A stretch of 64,000 bases of DNA, taken from Escherichia phage Av-05. The notes below the pieces were generated by a model. That model ran no database searches and was not told the DNA's origin. It saw only the letters and a program-made list of their open reading frames with translations. Made by a program: the position numbers and the translations under genes. Shown here in pieces: positions 45,408 to 63,398 of this stretch; within the stretch, counting starts at the first letter, position 1, and each line of letters begins with the position of its first letter. The stretch lies in sequence record KM190144; one strand, written 5' to 3'.

Positions 45408-45825
45408 ATTAAAAGTTTTCGACATGTTAGTGGATATTCACTTCCTGTCTCTGGGGTGTGCTATAGATATATCATGGAAGAGTTGGAACGGTGGCAAATT
45501 TATTTTTGGGTCGCTTAGACAAGATACCACAAAATATTTTGTAAGTTGCACAAGGAAATCTCTTGAAATACAGAAATTTTCTGGGTCTGGTTGGAAAACA
45601 TTAATTGACCCCAGCATGACACTTGACCCACAAAATATCTCAGAGAGTGAAAAACTCTTGGTAAATATCCTCCCAGGACTGACCGATTTTGAGAGGGAAC
45701 TCTACGAAGTGGCTGGGAATGTGGCTAAAATGTGGGCAGATGACCACACACAAGAAACGGATGCAAGGGAGTACGTGAGGAAGTTTCTCCGCAGACATCT
45801 CGATTGGGATACAACAGAAGAGTAA
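45391..45825 (+). CDS. hypothetical protein
   Basis: 144-codon ORF. Confidence 0.3.
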   Translation: MNTQNKLKVFDMLVDIHFLSLGCAIDISWKSWNGGKFIFGSLRQDTTKYFVSCTRKSLEIQKFSGSGWKTLIDPSMTLDPQNISESEKLLVNILPGLTDFERELYEVAGNVAKMWADDHTQETDAREYVRKFLRRHLDWDTTEE

Positions 45826-45928
45826 AATTTAACCACACAGGGAGGCTAACGCACGTAGTCTCCCATATGTCCCCATTTCAGGGACTATGTTATAGTAGTC
45901 CTAACAAAACAACAAAATGGAACCTAAA

Positions 45929-46192
45929 ATGAAAACTTTCAACGAATTCATCTCAGAATCGTCTGGTGTGAAAATTAACAAAGCGGTCAATCAGGTTATT
46001 GCTGATATTCTTAATTTGTATAACATTGACTTAACTCCGCATATCACGCTTGGTAACAAACGAAACTTTTTCATATTTAACACATCCGAACTTGACGAAA
46101 ATCAGTTCAATAACATTCAACGTTTTGCGAATGATAAAGGTCTTCGACATGAGCCTGGTGGCTATAAAAAATACGCAATATATTTGAAATAA
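45929..46192 (+). CDS. internal-protein-like small protein
   Basis: N-terminus MKTFNEFISES resembles the T4 internal protein capsid-targeting sequence. Confidence 0.4.
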   Translation: MKTFNEFISESSGVKINKAVNQVIADILNLYNIDLTPHITLGNKRNFFIFNTSELDENQFNNIQRFANDKGLRHEPGGYKKYAIYLK

Positions 46193-46252
46193 AGGTATAC
46201 AAGCCTATAGGACTATGTTATAGTAGTCCTATTAAAACATGAGGAGAATATT

Positions 46253-46558
46253 ATGAAATTAGGCGAAACCAACCGAATTGGTCTTTTTACAATATTTGCA
46301 TCACCTTTTTACGCAGCTCTTTCTGTTGCAGTATTACAAAAGGCTTACGATATGGATGGTGTTCCTGGTTTTGTATTCTTATCACCATTTTTATTATTCG
46401 TCGGGGCTTTGTTATTATATGCCACGACTAGTTTTGACCATAACGTCTGGGTTAATTATAAATGTAAATTGTCTGAAGAAGAACATGCAGAAGCTCGTAA
46501 AAAAGCTATTGAATCTACCAATCTAGAAAATTTCATTAAAGAATGCCGAGGAAAATAA
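46253..46558 (+). CDS. membrane protein
   Basis: hydrophobic helices. Confidence 0.3.
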   Translation: MKLGETNRIGLFTIFASPFYAALSVAVLQKAYDMDGVPGFVFLSPFLLFVGALLLYATTSFDHNVWVNYKCKLSEEEHAEARKKAIESTNLENFIKECRGK

Positions 46559-46559
46559 T

Positions 46560-47246
46560 ATGAATAGTTCTAAAGTGTTTAATAGTCAAGCTCGTGCAGT
46601 AGGTGGTTTTGCTCATAACGTACAAAATGACCAAATCAAAAATGAACCAATGTTCTTTAACTGTGATTTGAGTTTTGCTTGGGATAACGGTGGTCCAATT
46701 ACTCGTAGCTTTATCCAAAATCTCCCTGACGATTGGAAAGGCTCGGATGTAGTATTTGATTCACGAGTCCACATGCTGATGCCTGGTTGGTATCCTGCTA
46801 TTCCTGGATATCACCATGATGATGTTCCTCGCCCTGATATTCCAGTCGGCCAACACTTTATTACTGCAGGACAACCTGACTATGATAACCCTCGTTACCA
46901 TTCTGAACATATTCTTGGTCTTGTTAACGCTGATGTGTGTCCTACTCATTTTGCAACAGGAACTGCAGAGTTCAGTCAGATTCCTGATGGCGAACTTATC
47001 TATCGCCAGTGGCACAAAGAAGTCCTCGAAAAAATTGAAAAAGGTGAACTAGAGAAATGGGAAGCTCCGGACCGTACTCTTCTTCAGTTTGATTGGCAAA
47101 CATGGCACACTGGTTCTCGTGCAATTAGTAATGGATGGCGTTGGTTCGGACGTGTATCTCGTAATACAGACCGAGTTAAAAAGATTACTAATGAAATTCG
47201 TGTCAATGCTCAAGTTTATCTGGAATTCCCTATGGAAGGCTGGTAA
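46560..47246 (+). CDS. hypothetical protein
   Basis: 228-codon ORF, His/Asp/Trp-rich. Confidence 0.35.
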   Translation: MNSSKVFNSQARAVGGFAHNVQNDQIKNEPMFFNCDLSFAWDNGGPITRSFIQNLPDDWKGSDVVFDSRVHMLMPGWYPAIPGYHHDDVPRPDIPVGQHFITAGQPDYDNPRYHSEHILGLVNADVCPTHFATGTAEFSQIPDGELIYRQWHKEVLEKIEKGELEKWEAPDRTLLQFDWQTWHTGSRAISNGWRWFGRVSRNTDRVKKITNEIRVNAQVYLEFPMEGW

Positions 47247-47737
47247 TGATTAACAAAACATATTGGTCTAATATAGACGACGGTAATGAAGGTATTTCGT
47301 ACTATTCAGTAGATTGGACAGGATGTCCATCCTACTTAGTGAAACGTATTTGTCAAGAATTTAAAATCGACCAGCCAGCAGGTATTATCGTGAACAGATA
47401 CATTAATGGATATCAACCTATCGATGAAGTAATACGAACAACTCAAGCTGAGCTTGAAAAGTTTTTCAATAAGTGCCAATGGATAACAGGATGGATTATA
47501 TTTGTACCGTCGGTATGGTTTTTTAGTACTAAAGTAAGTGCCTTTGCCATACCAGATATTATCGCTATATTATTAGCATCTACTATCGTAAGTATTATTG
47601 GTGGTATTATTGGTGGAGGTACTATAGGCATCATTATTAATCTTGTTAAAAGTAGTTTACAGGAACGTAAAGACAAGATAAAGGCCAAGAATAATGAAGT
47701 TGAACGTTTTATTACCGAATGCAGGAATTTGAGATGA
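47246..47737 (+). CDS. membrane protein
   Basis: hydrophobic segment with GG(I/T)IG repeats. Confidence 0.3.
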   Translation: MINKTYWSNIDDGNEGISYYSVDWTGCPSYLVKRICQEFKIDQPAGIIVNRYINGYQPIDEVIRTTQAELEKFFNKCQWITGWIIFVPSVWFFSTKVSAFAIPDIIAILLASTIVSIIGGIIGGGTIGIIINLVKSSLQERKDKIKAKNNEVERFITECRNLR

Positions 47738-47970
47738 GTATAGCAATTTACATTAAATCAGAATCATGTGATAGTTATCTGTACACATATGATAAAGATG
47801 TGTCAGAAGAAAAAATCAAAGACGATCTTAATATGGACCTTGATATGTTCTGTCCTATTGCAGATTACAAACTTGCGGTTTCTAATAGTGAAAGTCCATC
47901 TAAAGAAACGCGCATTGAAGAATTTATGTCCGAATTAATGGCCAAATCATGGGACCGAGATGATGAGTAA
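47719..47970 (+). CDS. hypothetical protein
   Basis: 83-codon ORF. Confidence 0.3.
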   Translation: MQEFEMSIAIYIKSESCDSYLYTYDKDVSEEKIKDDLNMDLDMFCPIADYKLAVSNSESPSKETRIEEFMSELMAKSWDRDDE

Positions 47971-48418
47971 GAAAAATAAAGTGAAAGAACTATCAGCCGG
48001 TATTATCTTCATGACAAAAGATAAAGAGTTATTCATGGGCCGTGTAACTGGTTCTCGTCCTAAAGGTGCATTAGCTCATCGGTGGGATATTCCTAAAGGC
48101 CGTGTCGAGCCAGGTGAATCTCCTATTGAAGCCGCTATTCGTGAATGCGAAGAAGAAACTGGGTTTACACAATATGACCCTGCCTTCCTGAAAGACCTAG
48201 GCGAACATCATTACTCAGACAATAAGAATATTCATCTATTCCAATATACCATCCCTGTAGAGCACGAGCAATTCAGAAACAGTGTTTGTAATTCCTATCA
48301 TACATTCCCAGACGGACGACAGATTCCTGAATTTGATGCATTCGCTTTAATTAAACCTTCTCAATGGGAATATGTAATGGGCAAATCATTATATAAGGTG
48401 CTCACTACCATCCTATAA
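47960..48418 (+). CDS. nudE: Nudix hydrolase
   Basis: Nudix box GRVEPGESPIEAAIRECEEETG; immediately upstream of e as in T4. Confidence 0.6.
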   Translation: MMSKKNKVKELSAGIIFMTKDKELFMGRVTGSRPKGALAHRWDIPKGRVEPGESPIEAAIRECEEETGFTQYDPAFLKDLGEHHYSDNKNIHLFQYTIPVEHEQFRNSVCNSYHTFPDGRQIPEFDAFALIKPSQWEYVMGKSLYKVLTTIL

Positions 48419-48425
48419 GTAATAA

Positions 48426-48451
48426 ATACCTCCTATAAACGTAGGAGGTAT
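48426..48451 (+). promoter_or_regulatory. SD-sequestering hairpin with late-promoter-like TATAAACG in the loop
   Basis: perfect inverted repeat ATACCTCCTA/TAGGAGGTAT; 3' arm is the ribosome-binding site of e. Confidence 0.5.
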
Positions 48452-48452
48452 T

Positions 48453-48941
48453 ATGAATATATTTGAAATGCTTCGTAATGACGAAGGTCTTAGACTGACT
48501 TTATACAAAGACACCGAAGGCTTTTGGACGATTGGCATAGGCCATTTAGTAACAAAGAACCCGTCTTTAGCCGTAGCTAAAGCTGAACTTGACAGAATGA
48601 TCGGTCGTAAATGCAACGGTACAATTACCCTTGATGAGGCTGAAAAGCTATTTAATGAAGACGTCGATAAAGCCGTTCGCGGAATCTTGGGTAATGCTAA
48701 ACTTAAACCGGTATATGATTCTTTAGATGCGGTTCGTCGATGTGCATTGGTCAATATGGTCTTTCAAATGGGTGTAGCAGGCGTTGCTGGTTTTACTAAT
48801 TCTCTTCGTATGCTTCAACAGAAACGTTGGGATGAAGCGGCAGTAAATCTAGCCCAATCTAAATGGTATCGTCAGACACCTAATCGCGCGAAACGCGTAA
48901 TCTCAACATTTAAAACAGGAACTTGGAAAGCGTATATATGA
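48453..48941 (+). CDS. e: T4-type lysozyme (endolysin)
   Basis: about 80 percent identical by eye to T4 lysozyme (MNIFEMLR...EGLRL...YKDTEG...TIGIGHL...). Confidence 0.9.
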
Positions 48942-49219
48942 AAACATACAGTGAATTTTTATCAGAATCTATTCTTAACGAAGCTACTGACACATTTGCA
49001 ACTAAGCTAGGTGCAGCTTTAGTTGAAGCTGAAAGTCTATTAGCACGTATTTCTGAACTTGCCAGTAAGATAGATACTCGCAAATTTGAGCGCACCAGTG
49101 ATATCGTTAAGCTTGAAGCACTGCTGCGTATGTGCGATAAACCGGAAGAAATCGCTAAGAACGGCTCGTTAATGAAACAACGTCTTGAAAAATATATTTC
49201 AGGCGCTTCAGAAAAATAG
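48938..49219 (+). CDS. internal-protein-like protein
   Basis: N-terminus [11 protein letters not shown]; ATG overlaps the e stop (ATGA). Confidence 0.5.
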
Positions 49220-49220
49220 T

Positions 49221-49250
49221 GTTTACTTCCTCCAAGGGTTTTGATACTAT
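49221..49250 (+). promoter_or_regulatory. T4-early-type promoter
   Basis: -35 GTTTAC, 17-18 nt spacer, -10 TACTAT; spacer is inverted-repeat partner of the denV SD. Confidence 0.5.
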
Positions 49251-49277
49251 ACATCTATCAACTACTTGGAGGAAATT

Positions 49278-49691
49278 ATGACTCGTATCAATTTAACACT
49301 TGTTTCTGAACTGACCGACCAACATCTTATGGCTGAGTATCGTGAATTACCTCGTGTATTCGGTGCAGTCCGTAAACATGTTCAAAATGGTAAACGTGTA
49401 AAAGATTTTAAAATCTCTCCAACATTTATTTTAGGCACGGGCCACGTAACATTCTTTTACGACAAACTCGAATTTTTACGTTTACGTCAAATCGAGCTAA
49501 TAGCTGAATGTTTGAAACGTGGTTTCAAAATCAAGGACACGACAGTCCAGGATATTTCCGACATTCCTGTAGAATTTCGTAATAATTATGTCCCGTCCGA
49601 AGCGTCCATTGCGATAAGTCAAGCACGCTTAGATGAAAAAATTGCTCAACGTCCCACTTGGTACAAATACTATGGTAAATCAATTTACTAA
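49278..49691 (+). CDS. denV: endonuclease V (pyrimidine-dimer glycosylase)
   Basis: near-identical by eye to T4 endonuclease V ([12 protein letters not shown]...[16 protein letters not shown]...). Confidence 0.9.
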
Positions 49692-49697
49692 GGAAAA

Positions 49698-49958
49698 ATG
49701 AAAATGTATCAAGAATTTATCACTGAAGCGGATGCCAAAGACCCCAAATTTAAAGTTAAAGCTTTCATTGGTGATGCGGAAGACTTTGGCTCATTAAAAC
49801 GTAATGGGTATTCTTTCTTAGGTGGCGATGGTAAAGAAATCAACACCTATGCAAAACGTAGTGAAATTGCTTATGTTGTAGCAAGTCCTAAAGTAGATGC
49901 TGATGATATTGGATACGATTTTAACAACTTCGGAATTATTTCTGGCGGTAAAGCTTAA
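49698..49958 (+). CDS. internal-protein-like protein
   Basis: N-terminus MKMYQEFITEA. Confidence 0.5.
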   Translation: MKMYQEFITEADAKDPKFKVKAFIGDAEDFGSLKRNGYSFLGGDGKEINTYAKRSEIAYVVASPKVDADDIGYDFNNFGIISGGKA

Positions 49959-49961
49959 ATT

Positions 49962-49991
49962 GTTTACGCTTAAGTATTAATATGGTATAAT
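49962..49991 (+). promoter_or_regulatory. T4-early-type promoter
   Basis: -35 GTTTAC, about 18 nt spacer, -10 TATAAT. Confidence 0.45.
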
Positions 49992-50021
49992 TACTCTATC
50001 AAAACAAACAAGGAAACAAAA

Positions 50022-50600
50022 ATGAAAACATATAAAGAATTTATCGCCGAGGCCTTTGCAGGAAAAGCTCAAGGCATTAATAAGGACGAGTGGAATTATC
50101 GTGGCGGAAATGGTTTTGACCCTAAAACTGCTCCACTTGAACGATATCTAGCCACAAAAGCTTCTGATTTTAAAGCCTTCGCTTGGGAAGGACTACGCTG
50201 GCGTAACGATCTAAATATTGAAGTTGACGGACTTAAATTTGCTCATATTGAAGATGTTGTTGCTAGTAACTTAGACGCAGCTTTTGTTAAAGCCGACAGT
50301 GACCTTCGTCGCTGGAATTTAAAACTGTTCTCTAAACAAAAAGGCCCGAAGTTTGTGCCTAAAGCAGGTAAATGGGTCATTGATAATAAATTGGCTAAAG
50401 CTGTCAACTACGCTGGTCTTGAATTTGCCAAGCATAAATCATCATGGAAAGGTCTTGATGCAATGACTTTCCGTAAAGAATTTGCCGATGTTATGGCTAA
50501 AGGTGGCTTTAAGGCAGAAATAGATACCTCTAAAGGTACGTTTAAAGACGCTAATGTTCAGTACGCTTACGCCGTCGCTAATGCGGCCCGTGGTAATTAA
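50022..50600 (+). CDS. internal-protein-like protein
   Basis: N-terminus MKTYKEFIAEA matches the T4 capsid-targeting sequence. Confidence 0.5.
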   Translation: MKTYKEFIAEAFAGKAQGINKDEWNYRGGNGFDPKTAPLERYLATKASDFKAFAWEGLRWRNDLNIEVDGLKFAHIEDVVASNLDAAFVKADSDLRRWNLKLFSKQKGPKFVPKAGKWVIDNKLAKAVNYAGLEFAKHKSSWKGLDAMTFRKEFADVMAKGGFKAEIDTSKGTFKDANVQYAYAVANAARGN

Positions 50601-50629
50601 TAAGGCCTATTTACATTTAAAGGAAACAT

Positions 50630-50959
50630 ATGAAAACGTATCAAGAATTTATCACTGAAGTTACATTATCTGCGGAACAGAAAGCTGCTATCGAAGAAGG
50701 TAAAAATCCCAAAGTAACATATAAAGTAAATGGTAAAGGCGTTTTTGATGGCTTGGTTCAAGACCCTGAATTGAAAAAAGCTCTTTCTAAAACTAATGCA
50801 TACTTTGCTCCTAAATTTAACGCAGCTGGTGTACTTATTGGATTGGATGTATTCAACTCTAAAGGTGTTCTATCTAATGCCTTTGGTTATGCCGCTAACA
50901 AAATTACCAAAGCCGCATGGGAATCCAATACCAAACAAGCTCAAAAGCCTAGAGTATAA
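50630..50959 (+). CDS. internal-protein-like protein
   Basis: N-terminus MKTYQEFITEV. Confidence 0.5.
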   Translation: MKTYQEFITEVTLSAEQKAAIEEGKNPKVTYKVNGKGVFDGLVQDPELKKALSKTNAYFAPKFNAAGVLIGLDVFNSKGVLSNAFGYAANKITKAAWESNTKQAQKPRV

Positions 50960-51133
50960 TTCTTGCCTAATAAAGGGAAACGCAACCTCTCCTCATGAAC
51001 GTCGAGTCCTCTGAGTGATGTACCTTTTCCAACCTGTAATAAGGTCGAGCCCAAGTGCGGTAATGGGTTTACATAGCGAGTCGAAGGACCTAACATGTGC
51101 CATGGAATGGCCCCAACCTAAAAGAGAAACTAA

Positions 51134-51673
51134 ATGAGAACATTTTTAACCGGACCTTATCTATCCCTGATGAATGCTTTTACACACCATTCTGATGCTA
51201 GAGTAGAAGAAATTTGTAAGAACGGTTATGCCCCACCATTTGAAGACGTACTCAAGCAGTACTGTACACTTCGTTTAGACGGCGGCAGACAATCAGGTAA
51301 ATCGACCGCAGTAACTAATTTTGCTGTTAATTGGCTGTATGATGGCGGAACAGTTATTGTTCTTTCTAATACTTCAGCTTATTCTAAAATTTCTGCTGGC
51401 AACATTAAAAAAGAATTTTCTCGTTATTCTAGCGACGATATTCGATTCCGTTTATTTACTGATTCTGTTCGTAGTTTTATTGGCAATGAAGGTTCTAAAT
51501 TCCGTGGATTAACGCTTTCTCGTATTCTATACATAATTGACGAGCCTATTAAAGCTCCTGATATGGATAAGATTTACAATGTACATATTAAAACAGTCCA
51601 ACACTGTTGCAAAAGCAAATATTGCAACGGCGGTAATGCTCGTCCTCAATTTTTTGTGATTGGAATGCAATGA
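51134..51673 (+). CDS. P-loop NTPase-like protein
   Basis: Walker A GGRQSGKST and Walker B-like ILYIIDEP. Confidence 0.4.
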   Translation: MRTFLTGPYLSLMNAFTHHSDARVEEICKNGYAPPFEDVLKQYCTLRLDGGRQSGKSTAVTNFAVNWLYDGGTVIVLSNTSAYSKISAGNIKKEFSRYSSDDIRFRLFTDSVRSFIGNEGSKFRGLTLSRILYIIDEPIKAPDMDKIYNVHIKTVQHCCKSKYCNGGNARPQFFVIGMQ

Positions 51674-51978
51674 TGACCACTATTGAAGTTTTTGAGTATT
51701 GTTATAACAGCCCAGTATGCAATAAAAGGGCTCTTGTAGAAAATTACGAGATTTACCATTTTAAACCTAAACGATATCGTTTGACTAAAGGTCCGTTCGC
51801 AGGGCAGCAGGTTCTTTGTACTGCTCCTAATGCACGACTGATGACTAGTATTCCGCATTTCAAAATGGAATTTATTGATGGGCCATTTAAGGGATTAATC
51901 ACTCAAAGTTTAATGGCGTTTAATTCCGACCCATTTTTGATTAAAGAAAAAACTTGGATAAATTTATTTTCTAATTGA
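51670..51978 (+). CDS. hypothetical protein
   Basis: 102-codon ORF. Confidence 0.3.
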   Translation: MMTTIEVFEYCYNSPVCNKRALVENYEIYHFKPKRYRLTKGPFAGQQVLCTAPNARLMTSIPHFKMEFIDGPFKGLITQSLMAFNSDPFLIKEKTWINLFSN

Positions 51979-51984
51979 GGTTAT

Positions 51985-52347
51985 ATGAAAGCATATCAAA
52001 TTCTTGAAGGTACACATAAAGGCACTATTTATTTTGAAGACGGTACTCAAGCCCGGATTATTGTCTCTAAGACTTTTAAAGAAGACGCTATTGTAGACCC
52101 GGAAATTTTCTACGGTTTGAATGCCCGTGAAATTGAAATTGAACATCAACCTAAAGTTAAAATTGAAGGTGGTCAACATCTGAACGTTAACGTTCTGCGT
52201 CGGGAAACTCTGGAAGATGCAGTTAAGCATCCGGAAAAATATCCGCAGCTGACCATCCGTGTATCCGGTTATGCAGTTCGCTTTAACTCTCTGACTCCGG
52301 AACAGCAGCGCGACGTTATCGCTCGTACCTTTACTGAGAGTCTATAA
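51985..52347 (+). CDS. autonomous glycyl-radical cofactor (GrcA/YfiD-like; T4 Y06I-type)
   Basis: C-terminal 60 aa with RVSGYAVRF glycyl-radical motif appears identical to E. coli GrcA; codon usage shifts mid-gene. Confidence 0.7.
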
Positions 52348-52571
52348 TGGCTAAATTGATTATAGAAGGGTCTGAAGATGTTTTAAAATGTTTTGCCGCC
52401 TGGTTTAGTTGCTCAGGCGAGCAATCATTCACTGAAGCATTTAGAATGGGTGATATTACTGGAAACTATCCGACAACTGATATCATTGTACGTGGATATG
52501 GTATTAATGAGCCTATCCAATTGGTCGAATATGACCTTGCCACCGATGAGGAAATTCCTTATGTCGATTGA
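52347..52571 (+). CDS. hypothetical protein
   Basis: 74-codon ORF. Confidence 0.3.
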   Translation: MAKLIIEGSEDVLKCFAAWFSCSGEQSFTEAFRMGDITGNYPTTDIIVRGYGINEPIQLVEYDLATDEEIPYVD

Positions 52572-52827
52572 AGATATTAAAGGCTACAAGCCACATACCG
52601 ACGATAAAATAGGTAAAGTGAACGCTATTAAAGATGCAGAAGTCCGTCTTGGATTGATGTTTGATGCTCTGATTGAAGAAGCCTATATCTTGAAAGAAAA
52701 TGAAACAGAGCATCAAACCAAAGAAGATATGGATGCAGTGCAGGCTCTTAAGTACGCTAAGCAACATCTAAAAGAAGCCAGCATGTGGGCCTGTCGTGCA
52801 GTATTTCGTCCTGAGGAAAAATACTAA
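52560..52827 (+). CDS. hypothetical protein
   Basis: start at ATG 52560 overlapping the upstream gene end. Confidence 0.3.
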
Positions 52828-53042
52828 TGGCTTCTACTATTACTGGGTTATTGGACTTCCAGGAAAAGGTCAACAAAATTTGTAGTGAATACTTAAAGTA
52901 TCTTGAAGAAGACCTTGAAGATTGTAAGGAAGAAGGCGAAGAAGATTATGCTGACCAGCGTCGTCGCCAAATCGAAGAGATGAGACATTTCGCCGATATG
53001 GTATCTAAAGAATCTTGGACTTTAACTCCATTTTATCAATAA
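52827..53042 (+). CDS. hypothetical protein
   Basis: 71-codon ORF, acidic. Confidence 0.3.
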   Translation: MASTITGLLDFQEKVNKICSEYLKYLEEDLEDCKEEGEEDYADQRRRQIEEMRHFADMVSKESWTLTPFYQ

Positions 53043-53046
53043 AGTA

Positions 53047-53075
53047 GTTTACTTCTCCTCTAGTTGTGTTACTAT
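53047..53075 (+). promoter_or_regulatory. T4-early-type promoter
   Basis: -35 GTTTAC, 17 nt spacer, -10 TACTAT; spacer TTCTCCTCTAGTTG is the perfect inverted repeat of CAACTAGAGGAGAA at the regB SD. Confidence 0.55.
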
Positions 53076-53103
53076 AGACCTGTCAACTAGAGGAGAAATA
53101 AAA

Positions 53104-53562
53104 ATGACTATCAATTCGGAAGTTTTTATCCGTCGCAATAAACTCCGTCGAATCTTTGAAACGGAGTTTCGTCAAATCAATGCCGGTATAAAAGATGCTG
53201 CAAAGTCTCTTGGACTACCAGGCTTTCATATCAAGTATTCTCAACATCTCTTAGATCGTGCCATCCAGAGAGAAATAGATGAGAATTACGTTTTTGAATT
53301 ATTTCGTAAAGTAAAAAATCACGTTAAAGAAGTTGCAGAATTTTTATCAATGCCGGCACGTCCAGATGTTGATGAAGATTTTGTCGAAGGTGTCGAATAC
53401 CGCCCAGGCCGTTTAGAAATAACTGATGGAAATCTTTGGTTAGGCCTTACAGTTTGTCGCGAAAATCCGGCATTCAAAATGAAGACTCTTCAATGTAGAA
53501 TGGCTATTATTAACAATAAACGACTACCAGGAAAAGCTTCTAAAGCAGTGATTAAAATCTAG
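53104..53562 (+). CDS. regB: RegB endoribonuclease
   Basis: close match by eye to T4 RegB (MTIN.EVFIRRNKLRR...YSQHLLDRAIQREIDE...LQCRMAIIN..RLPGKASKAVIK). Confidence 0.85.
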   Translation: MTINSEVFIRRNKLRRIFETEFRQINAGIKDAAKSLGLPGFHIKYSQHLLDRAIQREIDENYVFELFRKVKNHVKEVAEFLSMPARPDVDEDFVEGVEYRPGRLEITDGNLWLGLTVCRENPAFKMKTLQCRMAIINNKRLPGKASKAVIKI

Positions 53563-53570
53563 AGGTAAAC

Positions 53571-54113
53571 ATGAGAAAAGCACTACTCGCTGGTCTATTT
53601 GCTCTTTCATTATCAGCACATAGCTCCGAGCATACTTTTAGTAATGTCCAACTCGATAACTTGAATTATGCTTATCAGTTTGGGGAACAATTTTCTAAGG
53701 ACGGAAAATTTAAAACGCATGAAAATATGCATAAGAAAGGACTTGGATACATAATGGCCGCAATACTATGGCAAGAATCATCTGCCGGTATTAATCTTAA
53801 AGATAAGAAAGGTCACCATGCGTATGGAATGTTCCAAAACTATCTACCAACAATGAGGGCAAGAATTAACCAGCTTGGTTATAATATGACTGATGCCCAA
53901 ATTAAGAAAATGCTATCTAAGCGGTCTAATTCAGCCAGATGGGCTTATATCGAATTTTCTTATTGGTTAAATATACATAACGGGGATATAAGAAAAGCTA
54001 TATCCTCATATAATGCGGGATGGAAGACAAGTGCTGGAAGTAAATATGCTTCTGAAGTCCTAGAAAAGGCTAATTACCTTAAATCAAATAAACTACTGGA
54101 AATAAAAGAATGA
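53571..54113 (+). CDS. secreted lytic-transglycosylase-like protein (T4 vs.1-like)
   Basis: signal peptide; position after regB. Confidence 0.45.
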   Translation: MRKALLAGLFALSLSAHSSEHTFSNVQLDNLNYAYQFGEQFSKDGKFKTHENMHKKGLGYIMAAILWQESSAGINLKDKKGHHAYGMFQNYLPTMRARINQLGYNMTDAQIKKMLSKRSNSARWAYIEFSYWLNIHNGDIRKAISSYNAGWKTSAGSKYASEVLEKANYLKSNKLLEIKE

Positions 54114-54457
54114 CCAAAATGTTGGCTTTAATAGTTAGCTTGGTTTCATTTAACGCTCTTGCTAATACTACATATACTGATGTAACGGAGTATACAAACA
54201 GAACGGCGTCTGATTACTGTGGTAAAAGTCAAGAGTGTAAAGTAGATTTTTCACAAAAATTGTTATATGCGTATAAAGACGGAGAAAAAGATGGGGCGTC
54301 TAGTAGGTTCAAGGCGTCTACCTTAATTAAACGATATCATAAAAAATGGCAAATATTAGAATGCTCGGTGGCGGAACCTAAAGATAAGGCAGCATGCAAT
54401 TCTATGGTGGACCGTCTAGTTGACTCTTATACTAGAGGACTTGTAGCAAGTGATTAA
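54110..54457 (+). CDS. secreted protein
   Basis: signal peptide MTKMLALIVSLVSFNALA. Confidence 0.35.
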   Translation: MTKMLALIVSLVSFNALANTTYTDVTEYTNRTASDYCGKSQECKVDFSQKLLYAYKDGEKDGASSRFKASTLIKRYHKKWQILECSVAEPKDKAACNSMVDRLVDSYTRGLVASD

Positions 54458-54917
54458 AAACTATATCAAGGGCGATATTGTCGCCCTGTTTTCTAAAGGT
54501 AATAATATTGCTCATGGGTGCAATTGTTTTCATACAATGGGCGCCGGTGTAGCAGGTCAATTGGCAAAGGCTTATCCAAAAATTCTGGAAGCCGATAAAC
54601 TTCAAACTGAATTCGGAGACGAGTCTAAACTTGGGACTTATTCGGTTTATGAAAAATATTTTAAGACTCATAAAGCTTATTGCTTTAATCTTTATACTCA
54701 GTTTGAGCCGGGACCTAATTTTGAGTACTCTGCTTTAATGAATTGTATAATAGAATTAAATGAATTCGGAAAAAATAAGATAACAAAGCCTGTGATTTAC
54801 ATGCCAAGAATTGGAGCAGGTATAGGTGGTGGAAACTGGGATATCATTGAAGAAATTCTTGATACATATTCCACTAAACTAGAAATTGTGATTGTTGATT
54901 GGGAACCATTGTTATGA
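54450..54917 (+). CDS. macro-domain protein
   Basis: NIAHGCNCFHTMGAGVAGQLAKAYP and IGAGIGGGNW motifs; paralog of 37696-38217. Confidence 0.55.
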   Translation: MIKNYIKGDIVALFSKGNNIAHGCNCFHTMGAGVAGQLAKAYPKILEADKLQTEFGDESKLGTYSVYEKYFKTHKAYCFNLYTQFEPGPNFEYSALMNCIIELNEFGKNKITKPVIYMPRIGAGIGGGNWDIIEEILDTYSTKLEIVIVDWEPLL

Positions 54918-55126
54918 ATGTGCATTATCCTCACCCGTATGACCCAAAGAATAAAGCAGTTATTATTCGTGAATGGGAAGAAATTCGTCAGACTAAGTGT
55001 CCTATTAACACCCCTCACGATGTTGAACGTCGTTATCATGGACGCTTTATGGAATATACCTTTATTGATAAGAAAGGTCGTAAAAAGCATGTCGAAGAAT
55101 ATTGCATGCAGGTCAAATGGTTATGA
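54899..55126 (+). CDS. small conserved protein (paralog of 41007-41222)
   Basis: shared HPYDPKNKAVIIREWEE...EYTFIDKKGRKKHVEEY. Confidence 0.4.
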   Translation: MGTIVMNVHYPHPYDPKNKAVIIREWEEIRQTKCPINTPHDVERRYHGRFMEYTFIDKKGRKKHVEEYCMQVKWL

Positions 55127-55329
55127 GCCAAACAAAAATTCTTACAGGTGCTAAATGCGAAAAATGCGAATGGCCTGTAGTTTTTGCTTTATGCAATGAC
55201 GAAATGGCTTGTGATTTTGATTATTGGTGTTACTGTTCGAACAAAGGTTGTAGCAATCATAAAGGTGAAGGGTTTTACTCAGGATTTTACCCTTACCCAG
55301 ATTTCGTTAAAGAAGGTGAACCTAAATGA
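55102..55329 (+). CDS. Cys-rich small protein
   Basis: 75 aa with CxxC pairs. Confidence 0.3.
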   Translation: MHAGQMVMSQTKILTGAKCEKCEWPVVFALCNDEMACDFDYWCYCSNKGCSNHKGEGFYSGFYPYPDFVKEGEPK

Positions 55330-55508
55330 AATTGACTAAAGAAGAGAAAACTAAACTGTTCGAACTTATCCATGACCTATTGGATGAGCAAGCAGCCACC
55401 AATGCGTACGATGAATATGCTCCTTTAACAGACGAAGAATATCAAGCATTGATGGAATCATTTGACAGGAAAGAACAAGAACTCATTGACTACGTGAATT
55501 CACTATAA
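55326..55508 (+). CDS. hypothetical protein
   Basis: 60-codon ORF. Confidence 0.3.
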   Translation: MKLTKEEKTKLFELIHDLLDEQAATNAYDEYAPLTDEEYQALMESFDRKEQELIDYVNSL

Positions 55509-55517
55509 GGGACTCTT

Positions 55518-56099
55518 ATGGCTAGTTTAATTTTTACCTATGCCGCTATGAACGCTGGTAAGTCTGCTTCATTACTTACTGCCGCACATAACTATAAAGA
55601 ACGTGGCATGGGTGTATTAGTTCTTAAACCGGCTATTGATACTCGCGATTCAAAAGGTGAAATAGTCTCTCGTATTGGTATTCGTCAGGATGCCAATATA
55701 ATTACAAAAGACATGGATATCTTTGAATTTTATAAATGGGCTGCAGCACAAAAGGATATTCACTGTGTATTTGTTGACGAAGCTCAGTTCTTAACTACTG
55801 AAAAGGTGTATCAACTTAGTCGTATTGTTGACGTATACAATGTGCCGGTAATGGCATACGGACTACGAACAGATTTTAAAGGTAATCTATTTGAAGGTTC
55901 TCAAGCATTAATGGCTATTGCCGATAAGCTTGTTGAACTTAAAGGTGTCTGTCATTGCGGTAAAAAGGCCACAATGGTAGCTAGAGTCACGGAAGACGGA
56001 CTTCCAATTACAGATGGCAGTCAAATTGAAATTGGTGATACCGATAGATACGTGTCATTATGCCGGAAGCATTGGAATGATTTGACAGGGTTGTTATAA
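55518..56099 (+). CDS. tk: thymidine kinase
   Basis: MASLIFTYAAMNAGKS P-loop, VFVDEAQF, C-terminal CHCG...C zinc motif; close to T4 Tk by eye. Confidence 0.9.
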   Translation: MASLIFTYAAMNAGKSASLLTAAHNYKERGMGVLVLKPAIDTRDSKGEIVSRIGIRQDANIITKDMDIFEFYKWAAAQKDIHCVFVDEAQFLTTEKVYQLSRIVDVYNVPVMAYGLRTDFKGNLFEGSQALMAIADKLVELKGVCHCGKKATMVARVTEDGLPITDGSQIEIGDTDRYVSLCRKHWNDLTGLL

Positions 56100-56126
56100 A
56101 TACTAATATCTAACCAAGAGGTATAT

Positions 56127-56339
56127 ATGCAGCAATTAAACGAAAGACAACTTCGTAATCTTACTGTAACCCAATTGGACGAAATCCGAAGAGAATTAGG
56201 ACATTCTATTTCTCATTTAAACGAGGATATTCGTCAAACTGGTTCTAAAGCTGATTATACACGCAAGCGCAAGCTGGAAAAATACCTCGCAGATGTTAAG
56301 GCCGTTCAAAGGCGAAAAATAAATACTGGCCAAAATTAA
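56127..56339 (+). CDS. hypothetical protein
   Basis: 70-codon ORF, basic. Confidence 0.3.
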
Positions 56340-56351
56340 CAGGAGGCCTAT

Positions 56352-56654
56352 ATGGCCTTAAGAGCGATAGCTGTCATGGCGATGCTGGGGTTTTTTGCAG
56401 CAACAACTCCTATTGTTGGCACTGCATATGTTGACCCGTACTTTGATAACTTTATGGAATCAGGGATTAAAAACGTATATACTTTGTTCGAAATTCAAAA
56501 TGTTGAGAATTCTGAAAAATTTTATAAGTATATGGCAAAGCATTACAAAAATAGCCCCTGTGATGATGCATTTGAATGTCATGAACAAGGCATAAAAACT
56601 GCCAGAAAATTTGCTGAGTTCATGAAAATAAAATTAGAGCCTACATCTATCTAA
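56352..56654 (+). CDS. secreted protein
   Basis: signal peptide MALRAIAVMAMLGFFAA. Confidence 0.35.
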   Translation: MALRAIAVMAMLGFFAATTPIVGTAYVDPYFDNFMESGIKNVYTLFEIQNVENSEKFYKYMAKHYKNSPCDDAFECHEQGIKTARKFAEFMKIKLEPTSI

Positions 56655-56660
56655 TTTACT

Positions 56661-56690
56661 AGCCCCTTCCGAAAGGTTGGGGCTTTTTTG
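56661..56690 (+). terminator. rho-independent terminator
   Basis: AGCCCC-ttccgaaaggtt-GGGGCT then TTTTTG. Confidence 0.55.
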
Positions 56691-56699
56691 CATCTATCA

Positions 56700-56728
56700 G
56701 TTTACTTCTCCTCAGGTTGTGTTATAGT
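56700..56728 (+). promoter_or_regulatory. T4-early-type promoter
   Basis: -35 GTTTAC, 17 nt spacer, -10 TATAGT; spacer TTCTCCTC is complementary to the downstream SD GAGGAGAA. Confidence 0.5.
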
Positions 56729-56755
56729 AGACCTTACTTACTAGAGGAGAACGTT

Positions 56756-56935
56756 ATGTCACGTAAAGAAAAAATTTCTAAGTTAATGTTTTTGATTGAA
56801 GAGTACGCTAACGCTGTATCCGATTGGGAAAATGCCCATGGGTGTGAAGACGGTGATATCGATATCAATAAGGCAATGAAAAAGATGGCTGATACGCACA
56901 CTGAATTGCAAATGTATGTTAACGAGATTATGTGA
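56756..56935 (+). CDS. hypothetical protein
   Basis: ATG at 56756 with GAGGAG SD. Confidence 0.35.
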   Translation: MSRKEKISKLMFLIEEYANAVSDWENAHGCEDGDIDINKAMKKMADTHTELQMYVNEIM

Positions 56936-56942
56936 GGATATT

Positions 56943-57149
56943 ATGCTTTACGATTATACTGGAAAATCTGAAGACGGTGTACTTGAACTTTTACCTGAAA
57001 GCGCTGAAGATGATGATATGGTGGCGATGTTTTGTAAAAATGGTCCTGGGGATAAGGGATGGATTTATCTTCGACAAGAAAATGACTTAATTGTTTTGGA
57101 CCCTAAACAAGTTGAAGAACTTTATCAACATTTAAAACACAATCGGTAG
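56943..57149 (+). CDS. hypothetical protein
   Basis: ATG at 56943 with GAGGAT SD, overlaps the upstream stop. Confidence 0.3.
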   Translation: MLYDYTGKSEDGVLELLPESAEDDDMVAMFCKNGPGDKGWIYLRQENDLIVLDPKQVEELYQHLKHNR

Positions 57150-57180
57150 TTTACATCTTGGTAGGACTAAAAAAAAAATT

Positions 57181-57690
57181 TTAAGATGCTTCTAATTCAG
57201 ATTTAAGATCAGCAATCATCTTTTCAAAGGATTTGTTCTTAGTCAGTGTAACACCTTTAGAAAGTGCAAACTCAACTAATCTATCTTTACTACCTTTTTT
57301 ATCAGCTTCATCATTCAGAGACATTGCTTCCTCTAAAATCAGATCAATAGATAGATTTTCTTTGTCATCCTTTTTATCTTGCACTTCTACAATCTTGGCA
57401 TCAACTGCCTTACCCATACTATTTGGATTAGGAATATCTTTGTTAAAGAATACAATATAAGAACCCATACGAATAGTAGAGTGCTGTGCATCAACATCAA
57501 GACCAGACATCTCAGCAAGAGCAGTGAAAAACTCAACAGTGTTTCTGAATGCCTTGTGTTGTGTCCCCACACATAAACCATTCAAAGGCAGTCTTGCAGA
57601 TACCGCTGCATTCAATTGTGGTGCATATGCTCCGAAAAACTTAAACAGTTCCACTTTATTAGGGAAAATACGATAATTTTGATTTGCCAT
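57181..57690 (-). CDS. hypothetical protein (head-module associated?)
   Basis: 169-codon ORF downstream of the major capsid gene. Confidence 0.35.
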   Translation of the reverse strand: MANQNYRIFPNKVELFKFFGAYAPQLNAAVSARLPLNGLCVGTQHKAFRNTVEFFTALAEMSGLDVDAQHSTIRMGSYIVFFNKDIPNPNSMGKAVDAKIVEVQDKKDDKENLSIDLILEEAMSLNDEADKKGSKDRLVEFALSKGVTLTKNKSFEKMIADLKSELEAS

Positions 57691-57764
57691 AAAATCTCCT
57701 TTTATTCCTTAGTAAAAACCACTTGACAACACAGGATAAGTGGCTATTATTAAGGTCAGAATGT

Positions 57765-57794
57765 GAAAAAGGGGAGGTGATAATTCACCTCCCC
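57765..57794 (-). terminator. rho-independent terminator after major capsid gene
   Basis: 10-bp stem GGGGAGGTGA/TCACCTCCCC, followed on the minus strand by a U-run. Confidence 0.55.
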
Positions 57795-57820
57795 TCATTA
57801 GAGGTAGCATTTAAGCTATC

Positions 57821-58834
57821 TTATGCGAAAGTACCAGTAGAACGTACAACCAGTTCAGGACGGGTGTTAACCGTCAGGAAGGAAGTTTCAGATTCAACTT
57901 TCTCTTCACGCAGATATGCAGAAGATTTGTACCACAGATACAGTTCTTCAGCTACAGTGTTTGCTTCACGAACATCATCTGCCGGAGCATAATGGATCTG
58001 GAACATATCATCAATACCTTGCGGCAGGATGTATGCTTCACCATCTGGGATATATCCAGAGATGTCTTCAATGTAGGTTACGTTCTTATGAACAAACATA
58101 CGGTTGTTGGCATTCTCAGAACCCATACCCAGACGACGACGCAGCGGTTCTTGGGTAGAAGAGTAATACTGGTAAGCGTTCATGATCAGCGGGTGGGCGA
58201 TCAGAGCAGAGAACCATTTACGAGAAGCCAGAACAATGATATTATAGTTATTGCCGTTATCACCTGCATTGTCGATGATGTATGCACGAGCGTCTTTCTC
58301 AATCAGATCAGACGGGTCAACTGCAACATCTGTGAAGTTGATATTGGCAGTATGCTGGGTAACTCCCCACTCAGTAAAGTAGTTGTACTGTGCGGTCGGA
58401 TCTTGTGGAGACCATGATTTACCCATGATTGCCTGAACCATTGCTTTTTCTTTCAGTTGTTCATGAGAAACGCGAATACGCTTAACTACGCGAGCAACTA
58501 CGTCTTCAACAGTTCTCGGAGCGTCCGTAGTGAAGTATTTACGGAAGTTCTGAACATCTGCCGCAGTGATCTGACGATCCAGAGGGAAGAACGGAATGTT
58601 GAAGTTCTTGATTTGGGCTTTTTCACTACCCACATAGTTACGTTCTCCACCACGACGACGTGCAGGAATATCCGCAACAATTTCGTCAACACGCTCAACA
58701 CGAGCAATTGTGGTTTCACCATGGTAGGCGGTGAACAGATCCATGTTGGTAATCAGGCGATACTGACGTGGAACAAGTTCCAGTGCTGCGCCAAGGTTTA
58801 CGATTTGAAAGTCGTTAGTCTGTACTGCTGCCAT
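57821..58834 (-). CDS. major capsid protein (lambda gpE-like)
   Basis: 337 aa; several segments parallel lambda gpE; highly expressed-type codon usage. Confidence 0.6.
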   Translation of the reverse strand: MAAVQTNDFQIVNLGAALELVPRQYRLITNMDLFTAYHGETTIARVERVDEIVADIPARRRGGERNYVGSEKAQIKNFNIPFFPLDRQITAADVQNFRKYFTTDAPRTVEDVVARVVKRIRVSHEQLKEKAMVQAIMGKSWSPQDPTAQYNYFTEWGVTQHTANINFTDVAVDPSDLIEKDARAYIIDNAGDNGNNYNIIVLASRKWFSALIAHPLIMNAYQYYSSTQEPLRRRLGMGSENANNRMFVHKNVTYIEDISGYIPDGEAYILPQGIDDMFQIHYAPADDVREANTVAEELYLWYKSSAYLREEKVESETSFLTVNTRPELVVRSTGTFA

Positions 58835-58857
58835 TTATAAATTCTCCTTGATGCAAA

Positions 58858-59280
58858 TTAGCTGATAGCCGTTACTTTAATATCTTCAGAACCATCGAAA
58901 TATTTATCGGTGATTTTCAGACCTCTTGCCTCAAGAGCTTTAATAGCAGTCTCGTCAATTCCTGTGGAACCATCAGAGAACACAATCTTGGACTTATTCA
59001 GAGTAAGGCCACGAACAGCAACAACAAAATTATATTTGGTTCCTACTTTGAACGGGGTAACAGGTTCGTATGCAGGTACAAGGTCATGGTCAACCAGAAC
59101 ACCATAAGCCTGAGCAGCATCACCAGATGCAGCTAAAGTACCGTCTTCTTTAACGATCATACCTGCTTTCATACCTGCTGCGTACTGAATCTCCATTTCC
59201 TTGAAGCTATAGCCTTGGTCAGAAGAATCAACTTTACCCAGTACAATGTCAGAGTAGAAACCTTGAATTGGATTAGCCAT
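58858..59280 (-). CDS. head decoration protein (gpD-like)
   Basis: 140 aa between scaffold and capsid genes. Confidence 0.45.
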   Translation of the reverse strand: MANPIQGFYSDIVLGKVDSSDQGYSFKEMEIQYAAGMKAGMIVKEDGTLAASGDAAQAYGVLVDHDLVPAYEPVTPFKVGTKYNFVVAVRGLTLNKSKIVFSDGSTGIDETAIKALEARGLKITDKYFDGSEDIKVTAIS

Positions 59281-59298
59281 TTATTTAATCTCCTCGAA

Positions 59299-60300
59299 TT
59301 ACGCTTTCATTGCAGCCGCTTCGCGTGCACGGGCGCGAGCTTTTTCTACGTTGGCTTTCAGAATATCTTCAGCAGACTTATTAATGTCGTCTGTAGTAGC
59401 TTCAGCACCGGAACCATGTTCAGCGGTAGCAAATTCTTTTTTCACAGTCTTAACTTCTTCTTCAAGTTCCTTAATACGAGCCTGTGCTTTTTCCAGAATA
59501 GCCACCACAGGAGCATTAGCTTTCTCGATAATAAAGTTAGCCAGTGCTTCATGATCAGAGTCAGCAGCGAAAGTGAAAGTTTTTGCTTTATTCAGAGCTT
59601 CTTTCTTTTCCACTTCAACGGCAGCTTTGATAATTTCATCAGCTTTAGCAGCTTTGGCTTCAGCTTCTTCTAATTTTTTAACCAGATCCAGATATTCCTG
59701 AGATTTGGTCACATCAACATTATTAGACACTGAGGTCTCCTCTTTTTTCTTGGATTTATCAACTACAGGTTTTGAACCTGCTTCTTTGACGACCCCAGTC
59801 ACCTGGAGATCTTTATCATCACCCTCTACGAAAGTGACTCCTAATTCTGCAACACCTTTTTCAAACAATTGTTGTAATTTTAGCAACTCATATTGTTTAG
59901 CGAGATCTAATTCTTTACCTTCGTGAGCAGCTTTAGCAATTGTTATTGCTTGCACGCGTTCTTCAAGAAATTCTTGATGTTGTGCATTCCATGCCACAAT
60001 AAATTCATCATCAGGGTTTTGCGCCGCATCGTATTCAAGTTCAGTTTCAAAACCAAGAAGTTTTGCCAGCAGTTCTGCATCATCATGCCACATGTAGAAG
60101 AATCTACGCAGAAATTCTTCAAAGCTCATTGTAACAGTTACTTGCTGGAGGGCTTTGATAACGTCTTTAGTAAGCTGCTCAGGTTTAAGATCAGACTTCA
60201 TAAGAAGTGATACTGGTCTTAAATTAGCAGAATACCCTTGAAGCTCATGACACAGTGCAATACCCTTCTCCTTAATGGCTTTGGCCTTTACAATTGTCAT
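59299..60300 (-). CDS. scaffolding protein
   Basis: 333 aa, Ala/Glu/Lys-rich coiled coil; between protease and decoration genes. Confidence 0.5.
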   Translation of the reverse strand: MTIVKAKAIKEKGIALCHELQGYSANLRPVSLLMKSDLKPEQLTKDVIKALQQVTVTMSFEEFLRRFFYMWHDDAELLAKLLGFETELEYDAAQNPDDEFIVAWNAQHQEFLEERVQAITIAKAAHEGKELDLAKQYELLKLQQLFEKGVAELGVTFVEGDDKDLQVTGVVKEAGSKPVVDKSKKKEETSVSNNVDVTKSQEYLDLVKKLEEAEAKAAKADEIIKAAVEVEKKEALNKAKTFTFAADSDHEALANFIIEKANAPVVAILEKAQARIKELEEEVKTVKKEFATAEHGSGAEATTDDINKSAEDILKANVEKARARAREAAAMKA

Positions 60301-60986
60301 TCGTCCTCTTCCTCTGTTTCATCTAGATAACCCAGACATTCGATACCGAAATCAACATCTGTTATTTCTCCTGTTGCTGTGTCCACACGCCCAGAGCACT
60401 GGATGCTTAAACCACCAACAACATTTGCTTTTTTCAAATCCCACAAAGCAGGATCATTATACTTAACCTTGGCTACCCATGTTCCTGCTTTAATTATCTG
60501 TTCCGTCCCAATGACCACAACATCCAGTTCTTCTTGAATCCAAGTTTTTTCAATAGTGAATGCATCAGTCTCGCTAAGATGGAATAAATTTTCTTTCACC
60601 AAACCAGCAGCGAGTGCCTTATCGTAGGATTCTTTTGCCTTTACTATCGTTTCAGGAGACATCCACTCTCCATGGGCATCCTTAGTGTTTGGCTCATAAA
60701 TAACCTCATAAGAGATCATTTGTTCCGCATCTTTTTGGATATTAACTACAGATGTTTCTTTATTAAGACTCTTTTTAAGATTTAGAGATAAAACTCTCTC
60801 AGAAGCCTTTTCTACAGAAATTTCTGGAGAATGGCCTGAGGCAATCAGGCCATTAGCGATATTCAGTATCTTGCTCTTTTGAACAAGAGACAGATCAGAT
60901 ACTGATGAAGGAAGGTCTTTAATGCTTTTAAATTTCATTATTTCCCCATTAACAGTTATTTTAACATCGTTCTTTTTCTTTTGCAA
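60297..60986 (-). CDS. prohead protease
   Basis: 229 aa between portal and scaffold; acidic C-terminus. Confidence 0.45.
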   Translation of the reverse strand: MQKKKNDVKITVNGEIMKFKSIKDLPSSVSDLSLVQKSKILNIANGLIASGHSPEISVEKASERVLSLNLKKSLNKETSVVNIQKDAEQMISYEVIYEPNTKDAHGEWMSPETIVKAKESYDKALAAGLVKENLFHLSETDAFTIEKTWIQEELDVVVIGTEQIIKAGTWVAKVKYNDPALWDLKKANVVGGLSIQCSGRVDTATGEITDVDFGIECLGYLDETEEEDE

Positions 60987-61007
60987 GTTATTTCAGAAGG
61001 TTGAGTG

Positions 61008-62549: not shown

Positions 62550-62564
62550 GAATTATCCCCTCTG

Positions 62565-63350: not shown

Positions 63351-63398
63351 GGGAGGATTATCGAATCCTTGTATTCAAGGTTGGACGCAACGCCAACC

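Follow-up and report, generated by a model that had tools for sequence, protein, structure and literature searches.

The window considered here, that is, the whole stretch of DNA analysed, comprises 64,000 nucleotides (nt) of Escherichia phage Av-05 (sequence record KM190144). Only about 45,883-57,169 of it (11.3 kb) is T4-like and corresponds to the early region of a T-even Mosigvirus, with positions 48300-57000 showing 100% identity to Escherichia phage phiC120 (Mosigvirus, an RB69-like T-even phage). PHROG scans identify the relevant genes of this block as the endolysin gene e, followed by an open reading frame (ORF) for an internal head protein; denV and regB, as an earlier note on this DNA had named them; an rI-like gene at 56352; and a gene at 56756 that encodes a 59-aa protein of unknown function (phrog_2758). 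At e, denV, regB and 56756, the Shine-Dalgarno sequence (SD) forms the 3' arm of a hairpin whose 5' arm lies within or over promoter motifs further upstream (Table 1). These elements probably act as promoter-split hairpins of the ribosome-binding site (RBS) that restrict the translation of a gene to the RNA made from its own promoter, a form of translational insulation.

The arms were found by script on the + strand, and the sequence was also read directly. The earlier note had described perfect inverted repeats of 9-14 bp that pair the SD with an upstream arm at these four genes; all four repeats were located, and the range holds for e (11 bp), denV (10 bp) and regB (14 bp), the stem at 56756 having 8 perfect bp only. 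In e, the stem closes a 6-nt loop (48436-41), and its 3' arm holds the SD GGAGG and abuts the ATG at 48453. The start codons of denV and regB follow at 49278 (gene part 49265-49280) and 53104 (part 53084-53106), respectively. In the 3' arm of regB, the SD GGAG is followed by AAAUAAAA and resembles a RegB/S1 target.

From the perspective of the promoters, the arms of denV, regB and 56756 are placed alike. The 5' arm begins on the base directly after the GTTTAC hexamer, and an extended -10 box of the form TGnTAnnnT stands 17-18 nt past this hexamer, so that the -10 box and the predicted +1 lie in the loop. The 5' arm had been claimed to occupy the spacer of a GTTTAC/TATAAT-type promoter in these three cases, and the motifs are indeed correctly placed. 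Start sites are predicted from sigma-70 geometry; for denV, whose 18-nt spacer carries a TGn, the predicted +1 is near 49257. The 5' arm of e is overlapped by the late-promoter-like motif AATAAATA (48421-28), and TATAAAC (48434-40) lies within the loop. Both of these motifs depart from TATAAATA, of which T4 e has two exact copies, and the loop is 3 nt shorter than that of T4 e.

Table 1. Hairpins, promoters and terminator-like element of the T4-like block, with predicted folding energies and the cost of opening the region from SD to AUG in the two transcript classes
Feature	Position	Strand	Parts	Energy (kcal/mol)	z	Shuffles folding as well	Opening, upstream-started RNA (kcal/mol)	Opening, own-promoter RNA (kcal/mol)
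e (endolysin) hairpin	48425-48452	+	5' arm AATACCTCCTA 48425-48435; 3' arm TAGGAGGTATT 48442-48452	-16.6	-5.75	0/200		
denV early-type promoter	49221-49250	+	-35 GTTTAC 49221-26; -10 TACTAT 49245-50					
denV hairpin	49227-49274	+	5' arm (anti-SD) TTCCTCCAAG 49227-36, in spacer; 3' arm (SD) CTTGGAGGAA 49265-74	-19.2	-4.3	0/200	12-14	2.9
regB early-type promoter	53047-53075	+	-35 GTTTAC 53047-52; 17-nt spacer; -10 TACTAT 53070-75; predicted +1 near 53082					
regB hairpin	53053-53097	+	5' arm TTCTCCTCTAGTTG 53053-66, fills spacer; 3' arm CAACTAGAGGAGAA 53084-97	-22.6	-5.4	0/200	17-18	2.1
Intrinsic-terminator-like hairpin	56663-56689	+	CCCCTTCCGAAAGGTTGGGG then CTTTTTT; between rI-like gene and 56700 promoter	-16				
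Early-type promoter of gene at 56756	56700-56728	+	-35 GTTTAC 56700-05; 17-nt spacer; -10 TATAGT 56723-28; predicted +1 near 56735					
56756 hairpin	56706-56751	+	5' arm TTCTCCTC 56706-13; 3' arm (SD) GAGGAGAA 56744-51; ATG 56756	-14.0	-0.66	48/200	10.5-11	3.1

Stems of this kind are rare in the window. A scan of both strands for an SD followed by an ATG that opens an ORF of at least 40 aa yields 177 sites, and perfect SD-overlapping stems of at least 8 bp are present only at e, denV, regB and 56756 (4/177). Dinucleotide shuffles of the upstream sequence lead to an expectation of 0.96 such sites and, for stems of at least 10 bp, of 0.10, where three are observed. The same four genes rank as the top four of the 57 sites in an energy-based scan of the T4-like part, so the list of hairpins given in the earlier note is complete. 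The helix over SD and start in long transcripts is strong for e, denV and regB and weak for 56756 (z -0.66). The latter hairpin is credible solely because its cassette (56700-56758) is about 80% identical over 55 nt to that of regB (53047-53106); two orthologues of the 56756 gene were found, both near-identical. None of the 4227 covariance models of Rfam matches 45800-57300 of the window at E <=1.

The consequences of the layout for the two possible classes of transcript were assessed through accessibility, defined as the energy cost of making the region from SD to AUG single-stranded, with long RNAs started 60-120 nt upstream and short RNAs started at the predicted +1. For regB, denV and 56756, the cost drops from 10-18 kcal/mol to 2-3 kcal/mol (Table 1), in agreement with the earlier proposal that read-through RNA would mask the SD and promoter-proximal RNA leave it free. 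The predicted 5' untranslated regions of the own-promoter RNAs fold no better than shuffles, and the denV and 56756 leaders fold worse than nearly all of them. No terminator is present between denV or regB and the respective upstream gene, whose stop codons (49217-19 and 53040-42) lie 1-4 nt before the -35 box. The promoter of 56756 is preceded by a good terminator-like hairpin (56663-89), which at two other loci (L099 and L100) keeps its stem and has a changed loop. The case of 56756 is weak, and this hairpin just upstream would already limit read-through there. In the predicted short late transcript of e (48442-48476), the SD region can pair with e codons 8-11 (-10.7 kcal/mol), although this alternative structure is marginal (z -1.9, 11/200 shuffles).

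According to the proposed mechanism, the SD would be the 3' arm and its complementary 5' arm would lie upstream of the gene's own transcription start, in the spacer of a sigma-70-type T-even early promoter at denV, regB and 56756, and over a late-promoter-like motif at e. RNA coming from upstream promoters would contain both arms, fold, and hide the SD from 30S subunits. RNA from the embedded promoter would begin in the loop, carry the 3' arm only and be open to translation. The protein output of the early genes would then follow their own early promoter only, giving an immediate-early pulse that ends at early-promoter shut-off, and these genes would be insulated from the cumulative transcription of tandem upstream promoters and from later read-through. 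The analysis shows the hairpins themselves, how stable they are, where they lie relative to the promoter motifs and, through covariation, that pairing is selected; initiation at the predicted sites, the presence and quantity of read-through RNA and any translational effect are inferred. A 5'-arm variant that keeps both the -35 and the -10 box would be, for example, the change of TTCTCCTC to TTGTGGTC.

The pairing is conserved among related phages, as judged from regB and denV loci taken from IMG/VR. For 23 of 32 distinct regB upstream regions, none of 100 dinucleotide shuffles of the upstream part reaches the native value, and the same is true for 19 of the 25 T-even-type denV regions scored (0/60 shuffles). 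As negative controls, the denV homologues of four jumbo phages, which have other promoter layouts, show no SD masking; in these contigs (L040, L043, L047 and L048, 345-378 kb), a terminator-like hairpin (GGGTTGACTTCGGTCAGCCC with a T-run behind it) contains the -35 TTGAC and the SD stays free, a different arrangement of promoter and stem-loop. The layout of denV in the window is found in 16 other distinct denV upstream regions. The arms vary by lineage yet stay complementary, as in TTCTCCTCTAGTTG/CAACTAGAGGAGAA, TTTCTCCTCTTTATG/CATAAAGAGGAGAAA and ATCTCCTTTTAG/CTAAAAGGAGAT, and further pairs from other lineages include ATCCTCATTTG/CAAATGAGGAT and ATCTCCGTTTG/CAAACGGAGAT.

Covariation was quantified in 40 distinct cassettes, cut to segments of fixed length and aligned by the SD core and the sequence complementary to it. 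As this anchoring forces the four core pairs to match, the evidence comes from the flanking pairs only. A MAFFT alignment of whole regB cassettes was not used for pair counts, as it put the 3' arms out of register. The number of cells changed on both sides is 125, compared with 53.7 +/- 5.6 in shuffles (0/500 reach 125), and the covariation score is 0.44, compared with at most 0.13 for slid registers. Flanking pairs show three to four Watson-Crick pair types together with wobble variants. This covariation strongly indicates that the pairing is under selection.

When folded from the -35 box to the start codon, all 60 distinct regB and denV cassettes of T-even-type phages pair the SD core with an upstream arm, and in each of them the predicted start lies either in the interval separating the arms or where the 5' arm has its 3' end. 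Two architectures can be distinguished. In type A (45/60, including the three of the window), the 5' arm covers the spacer from its position +1 to about +16, counted from the -35 box; 14-24 nt separate its end from the predicted +1, and a further 0-9 nt separate the predicted +1 from the 3' arm. In type B (15/60), of which several denV loci and T4 modB are examples, the 5' arm spans the segment between the -10 box's 3' end and about +1, and the 3' arm continues as far as the AUG. With the start as predicted, little or nothing of the 5' arm would remain in the gene's own transcript in either type. That types A and B arrive at this one outcome by different routes argues most strongly for selection on SD masking in RNA initiated upstream. 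The proposal of the earlier note gains support from the compensatory changes across the 40 cassettes and from a predicted start that cuts off the 5' arm in 60/60 regions. The cassettes evidently move or convert between genes as units, judging from the following cases: those of denV and regB are nearly identical in IMG/VR contig 641509422, and the T4 denV cassette is the regB cassette of other phages.

The same layout is found in T4, where 126 kb of the minus strand (NC_000866.4) were scanned, with 286 SD-plus-start sites. As a control, the scan recovers among its strongest outliers the late cases established by experiment (e, I-TevI, segB, I-TevII and 49). These outliers also include cases with an early promoter (modB, nrdC.8, 30.8, regB, alc, e.8, denV, motB.2 and alt.-3), which fall in the energy range of the known late hairpins. 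The earlier note had seen the logic of T4 gene e used at several early genes; the hairpin layout agrees with this, although it is not special to the window, as T4 regB, denV and others are alike. There are 43 GTTTAC-type promoter sites in T4, 40 of them with a start codon nearby, and about 10 of these 40 show promoter-dependent masking of at least 5 kcal/mol; no masking is seen at the remaining ones, ipI, ipIII and rIIA.1 among them. An anti-SD 4-mer is present in only 11 of the 43 spacers. Because of these two proportions, the feature is gene-specific and stands outside the promoter consensus, and the possibility that the anti-SD is a mere part of the early-promoter consensus was rejected. 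On the minus strand, alc (136336) and alt.-3 (123093) have the same promoter-hairpin cassette, GTTTACAAGTCCCTCGTGTTGTGTTATAGTAGTCTTACT.ACATAACATGAGGA, in copies 13 kb apart. No promoter features are annotated in two T4 GenBank records.

Published work on T4 provides context for these cases. The early promoter of T4 regB is of the typical kind and is shut off at 2-3 min (PMC3014915), and T4 proteomics places RegB and ModB among the early proteins (PMC9697503). RegB needs a single-stranded GGAG and cuts the SDs of regB, modB, nrdC.8 and motB.2 in vivo (PMC1702504), so these SDs must occur in an open state during infection. That modB RNA, although structured, is cut in vivo was puzzling to the authors of that study (PMC1702504); a promoter-proximal modB isoform without the 5' arm would explain this cutting.

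Masking of the SD in read-through RNA is supported by all the computational tests, with the start sites predicted. Several points weigh against it. The 5' ends used for the transcripts of this phage and of T4 are predictions from promoter motifs. Some coupling is conceivable, as ribosomes terminating 7-10 nt ahead of the 5' arm, at the stop codon of the upstream gene, could open part of the stem for a short time. Some of the covariation reflects cassette exchange instead of independent compensatory mutation and, as cassettes are exchanged between genes, the cells counted are not independent events. In a strand test meant to tell a constraint on the sense RNA from one on the DNA, isolated G.U and A.C mismatches in the helices number 5 and 7, respectively, so the case for action at the RNA level rests on the constant involvement of the SD and not on wobble asymmetry. 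Finally, the 56756 hairpin is no more stable than its shuffles (48/200), and a terminator precedes its promoter.

Among the alternatives, control of RNA decay is unlikely to be the primary role of the hairpins. It holds that the hairpin shields the intergenic GGAG from RegB in long transcripts and leaves own-promoter early RNA sensitive, which would separate short-lived early mRNA from stable read-through and middle mRNA. A GGAG core anchors 31 of the 40 cassettes, although GGAG was tried first, and the regB SD of the window (GGAG followed by AAAUAAAA) fits a RegB/S1 target (PMC1702504). Yet the GGAG of T4 denV is RegB-resistant because it has no A-rich tail, and many phages keep the hairpin at denV; ribosome exclusion is the better fit for cassettes whose core is GAGG or AGGA and for type B stems reaching the AUG; and gene e has the same device with no involvement of RegB. 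Shielding is compatible with translational insulation and could be a second role alongside it.

It is quite improbable that the pairing of the SD is incidental to cassettes of the PeSL (promoter-early stem-loop) type, in which stem-loops would attenuate or terminate upstream transcription and cassettes of about 55 bp would serve as recombination linkers. Promoter-embedded stem-loops, located in the -35/-10 interval or over the -10 box, are known from RB49 and phi1, and PeSL-like elements from T4 and PST (PMC2839356, PMC4122927). The identity of about 80% between the regB and 56756 cassettes, the use of one cassette by denV and regB in different phages and the classic terminator-then-promoter layout formed by 56663-89 and the promoter at 56700 would all agree with it. 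However, no U-tract follows the 3' arms (AAATAAAAATG, ATTATG, CGTTATG), and only the use of the SD as 3' arm is constant over both architectures and all 60 cassettes. Moreover, homology for recombination needs no complementary cassette halves, yet the halves covary. Intrinsic termination by the SD hairpins themselves was ruled out, as no U-tract stands behind their 3' arms.

Action at the DNA level, with a palindrome around the -10 box and the start that regulates the embedded promoter as the operator of a dimeric shut-off factor or as a cruciform, is very doubtful. Type A arms do bracket the -10 box and the +1, the mechanism of early-promoter shut-off is not completely understood (PMC3014915), and the similar numbers of G.U and A.C mismatches leave room for a constraint on DNA. 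Against this, type B arms do not bracket the -10 box, the diversity and covariation of the arms, which are not conserved, argue against a sequence-specific protein, and the repeat is missing from three quarters of the T4 early promoters, which nonetheless shut off in concert (PMC3014915). Another alternative is that, in an AT-rich genome, spacers rich in pyrimidines and SDs rich in purines are complementary by chance; about one stem of at least 8 bp per 177 sites is then expected, and 48/200 shuffles match the 56756 hairpin. This is extremely improbable as a general account, being refuted for e, denV and regB by the excess of stems of at least 10 bp (3 vs 0.10), by z-scores of -4.3 to -5.75 and by arms that covary across phages; it may hold for 56756 alone.

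Regarding the novelty of translational insulation by promoter-split hairpins, the e case is already known, and the early-promoter form, judging from the regions compared, is widespread in T-even phages. This latter form is apparently untreated in the accessible T4 reviews. A T4 sequence paper of 1986 reportedly pointed to potential stem-loops before ipIII, ipII, denV and orf61.9 (regB), and an earlier description of the structures in older papers is possible. Extending the proposal to whole genomes, it can tentatively be suggested that the roughly one quarter of T-even early promoters with an anti-SD arm, in the spacer or between the -10 box and +1, constitute a genome-wide layer of translational insulation. 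The genes concerned would be translated and exposed to RegB only via their own promoter-proximal RNA, and the read-through, middle and late RNA across them would escape both ribosomes and RegB. If true, this would define a class of immediate-early proteins including RegB, ModB, Alc and DenV, help explain why RegB spares middle transcripts and resolve the puzzle of the structured modB RNA that is cut in vivo. T4 is the textbook example of temporally ordered gene expression. Even so, according to a recent transcriptome and proteome study, the part that translation plays where transcript and protein timing disagree still needs study (PMC9697503). If a conserved, covarying device links the translation of particular early genes to the promoter of each, the early-to-middle switch would gain a simple layer that acts in cis, and one could state concretely which copy of a polycistronic RNA is translated or is cleaved by RegB. 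The device would also suggest a compact promoter-plus-insulator design for synthetic operons.

The surroundings of the four genes also present distinctive features. Gene e ends within the start of the gene that follows it, the two sharing an ATGA (48938-48941), which suggests translational coupling; the following gene is a member of the internal-head-protein family (phrog_3499); in T4, the position downstream of e is occupied by ipIII and ipII. Outside the T4-like block, the flanks (1-45,882 and 57,170-64,000) are 95-97% identical to an unrelated group of phages of about 79 kb, whose matching members include Escherichia phages 24-2-1, 18-1-2 and vB_EcoM_TH18. The left flank contains primase/helicase and DNA polymerase genes, and the right flank major capsid and terminase genes. 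The mosaic window is either a chimeric assembly or a real recombinant. At the left junction (45866-45900), an inverted repeat, GGGACTATgttATAGTAGTCC, holds a TATAGT hexamer resembling a -10 box and adjoins the first T4-like ORF (ATG 45929) upstream. The phiC120 record (KY703222.1, 186.6 kb) has the same gene run of about 17 kb, from head completion through neck protein, at both ends, which looks like unresolved terminal redundancy or circular permutation in the assembly.

Three groups of known systems bear comparison with these hairpins. The first are the late RBS hairpins of T4. In this class, T4 e included, long transcripts are translationally silent and those from internal promoters active (PMC3014915, PMC2988022), and similar e leaders occur in related phages (PMC3014915). 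RBS-sequestering hairpins have been reviewed, with the statement that the genes so regulated are all late genes (PMC2988022). In the members of this class (e, soc, 49, I-TevI, I-TevII/III, segB and Aeh1 mobE), as predicted for the window, the SD and/or the AUG is paired in a helix, the 5' strand of which precedes an internal promoter, and the e hairpin of the window is the direct orthologue of that of T4 e. The internal promoter of the T4 late class is a gp55 late promoter (TATAAATA), which delays expression until late. In the window, only e has late-like motifs (AATAAATA and TATAAAC), whereas denV, regB and 56756 have sigma-70 early promoters (GTTTAC, N17-18, TAnnnT). The predicted effect at these three genes is the opposite, with expression limited to the first minutes and shielded from transcription that comes from upstream. 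Since their promoters are of the early type and the pairing layout is the same, they can be considered a variant of the promoter-split RBS hairpin class. The promoter motifs are correctly placed for transcripts that would lack the 5' strand, the start sites in this phage being predictions; the T4 regB promoter is documented, and the pairing is conserved in related phages.

The second group comprises the PeSLs (Arbiol 2010; Comeau 2014) and the IP-locus cassettes (Repoila 1994), which are likewise compact cassettes of early promoter, stem-loop, SD and start codon and, like those of the window, are repeated within a genome and shared between genes. Their stem-loops can sit in the interval from the -35 box to the -10 box or over the latter, and the terminator-then-promoter layout at 56663-56728 fits their description. 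PeSL stem-loops are self-contained, often G/C-rich and read as terminators or attenuators; in the early-gene hairpins of the window, by contrast, the second arm is the SD, 17-30 nt away, the -10 box and the predicted +1 lie in the loop, and no U-tract follows, so that only 56663-89 looks like a terminator. The PeSL papers treat the stem-loops as terminators and recombination linkers, with no mention of SD pairing (PMC2839356, PMC4122927). Upstream of regB in several loci (L140/L141 and L119-L122) and of denV in another (L033), a second, G/C-rich hairpin (e.g. GGGCCATgatactATGGCCC) encloses the -10 box and is nested in a short SD/anti-SD helix, an arrangement that resembles RB49-type PeSL stem-loops plus SD masking.

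Finally, the closest functional analogue of own-promoter-only translation is the protection of insertion sequence (IS) transposases, by fold-back inhibition in IS10 and by RBS occlusion in IS200. In IS10, Davis, Simons and Kleckner (1985) are said to have found that the 5' segment of an external transcript pairs with the RBS, the element's own promoter starting downstream of that segment. The occlusion of the RBS in IS200 has been mentioned as well (PMC3196728). IS elements and phages are different genetic elements, and their devices share no homology; unlike in the IS elements, the anti-SD arm of the phage lies inside the promoter spacer, and the device recurs at many genes of one genome.

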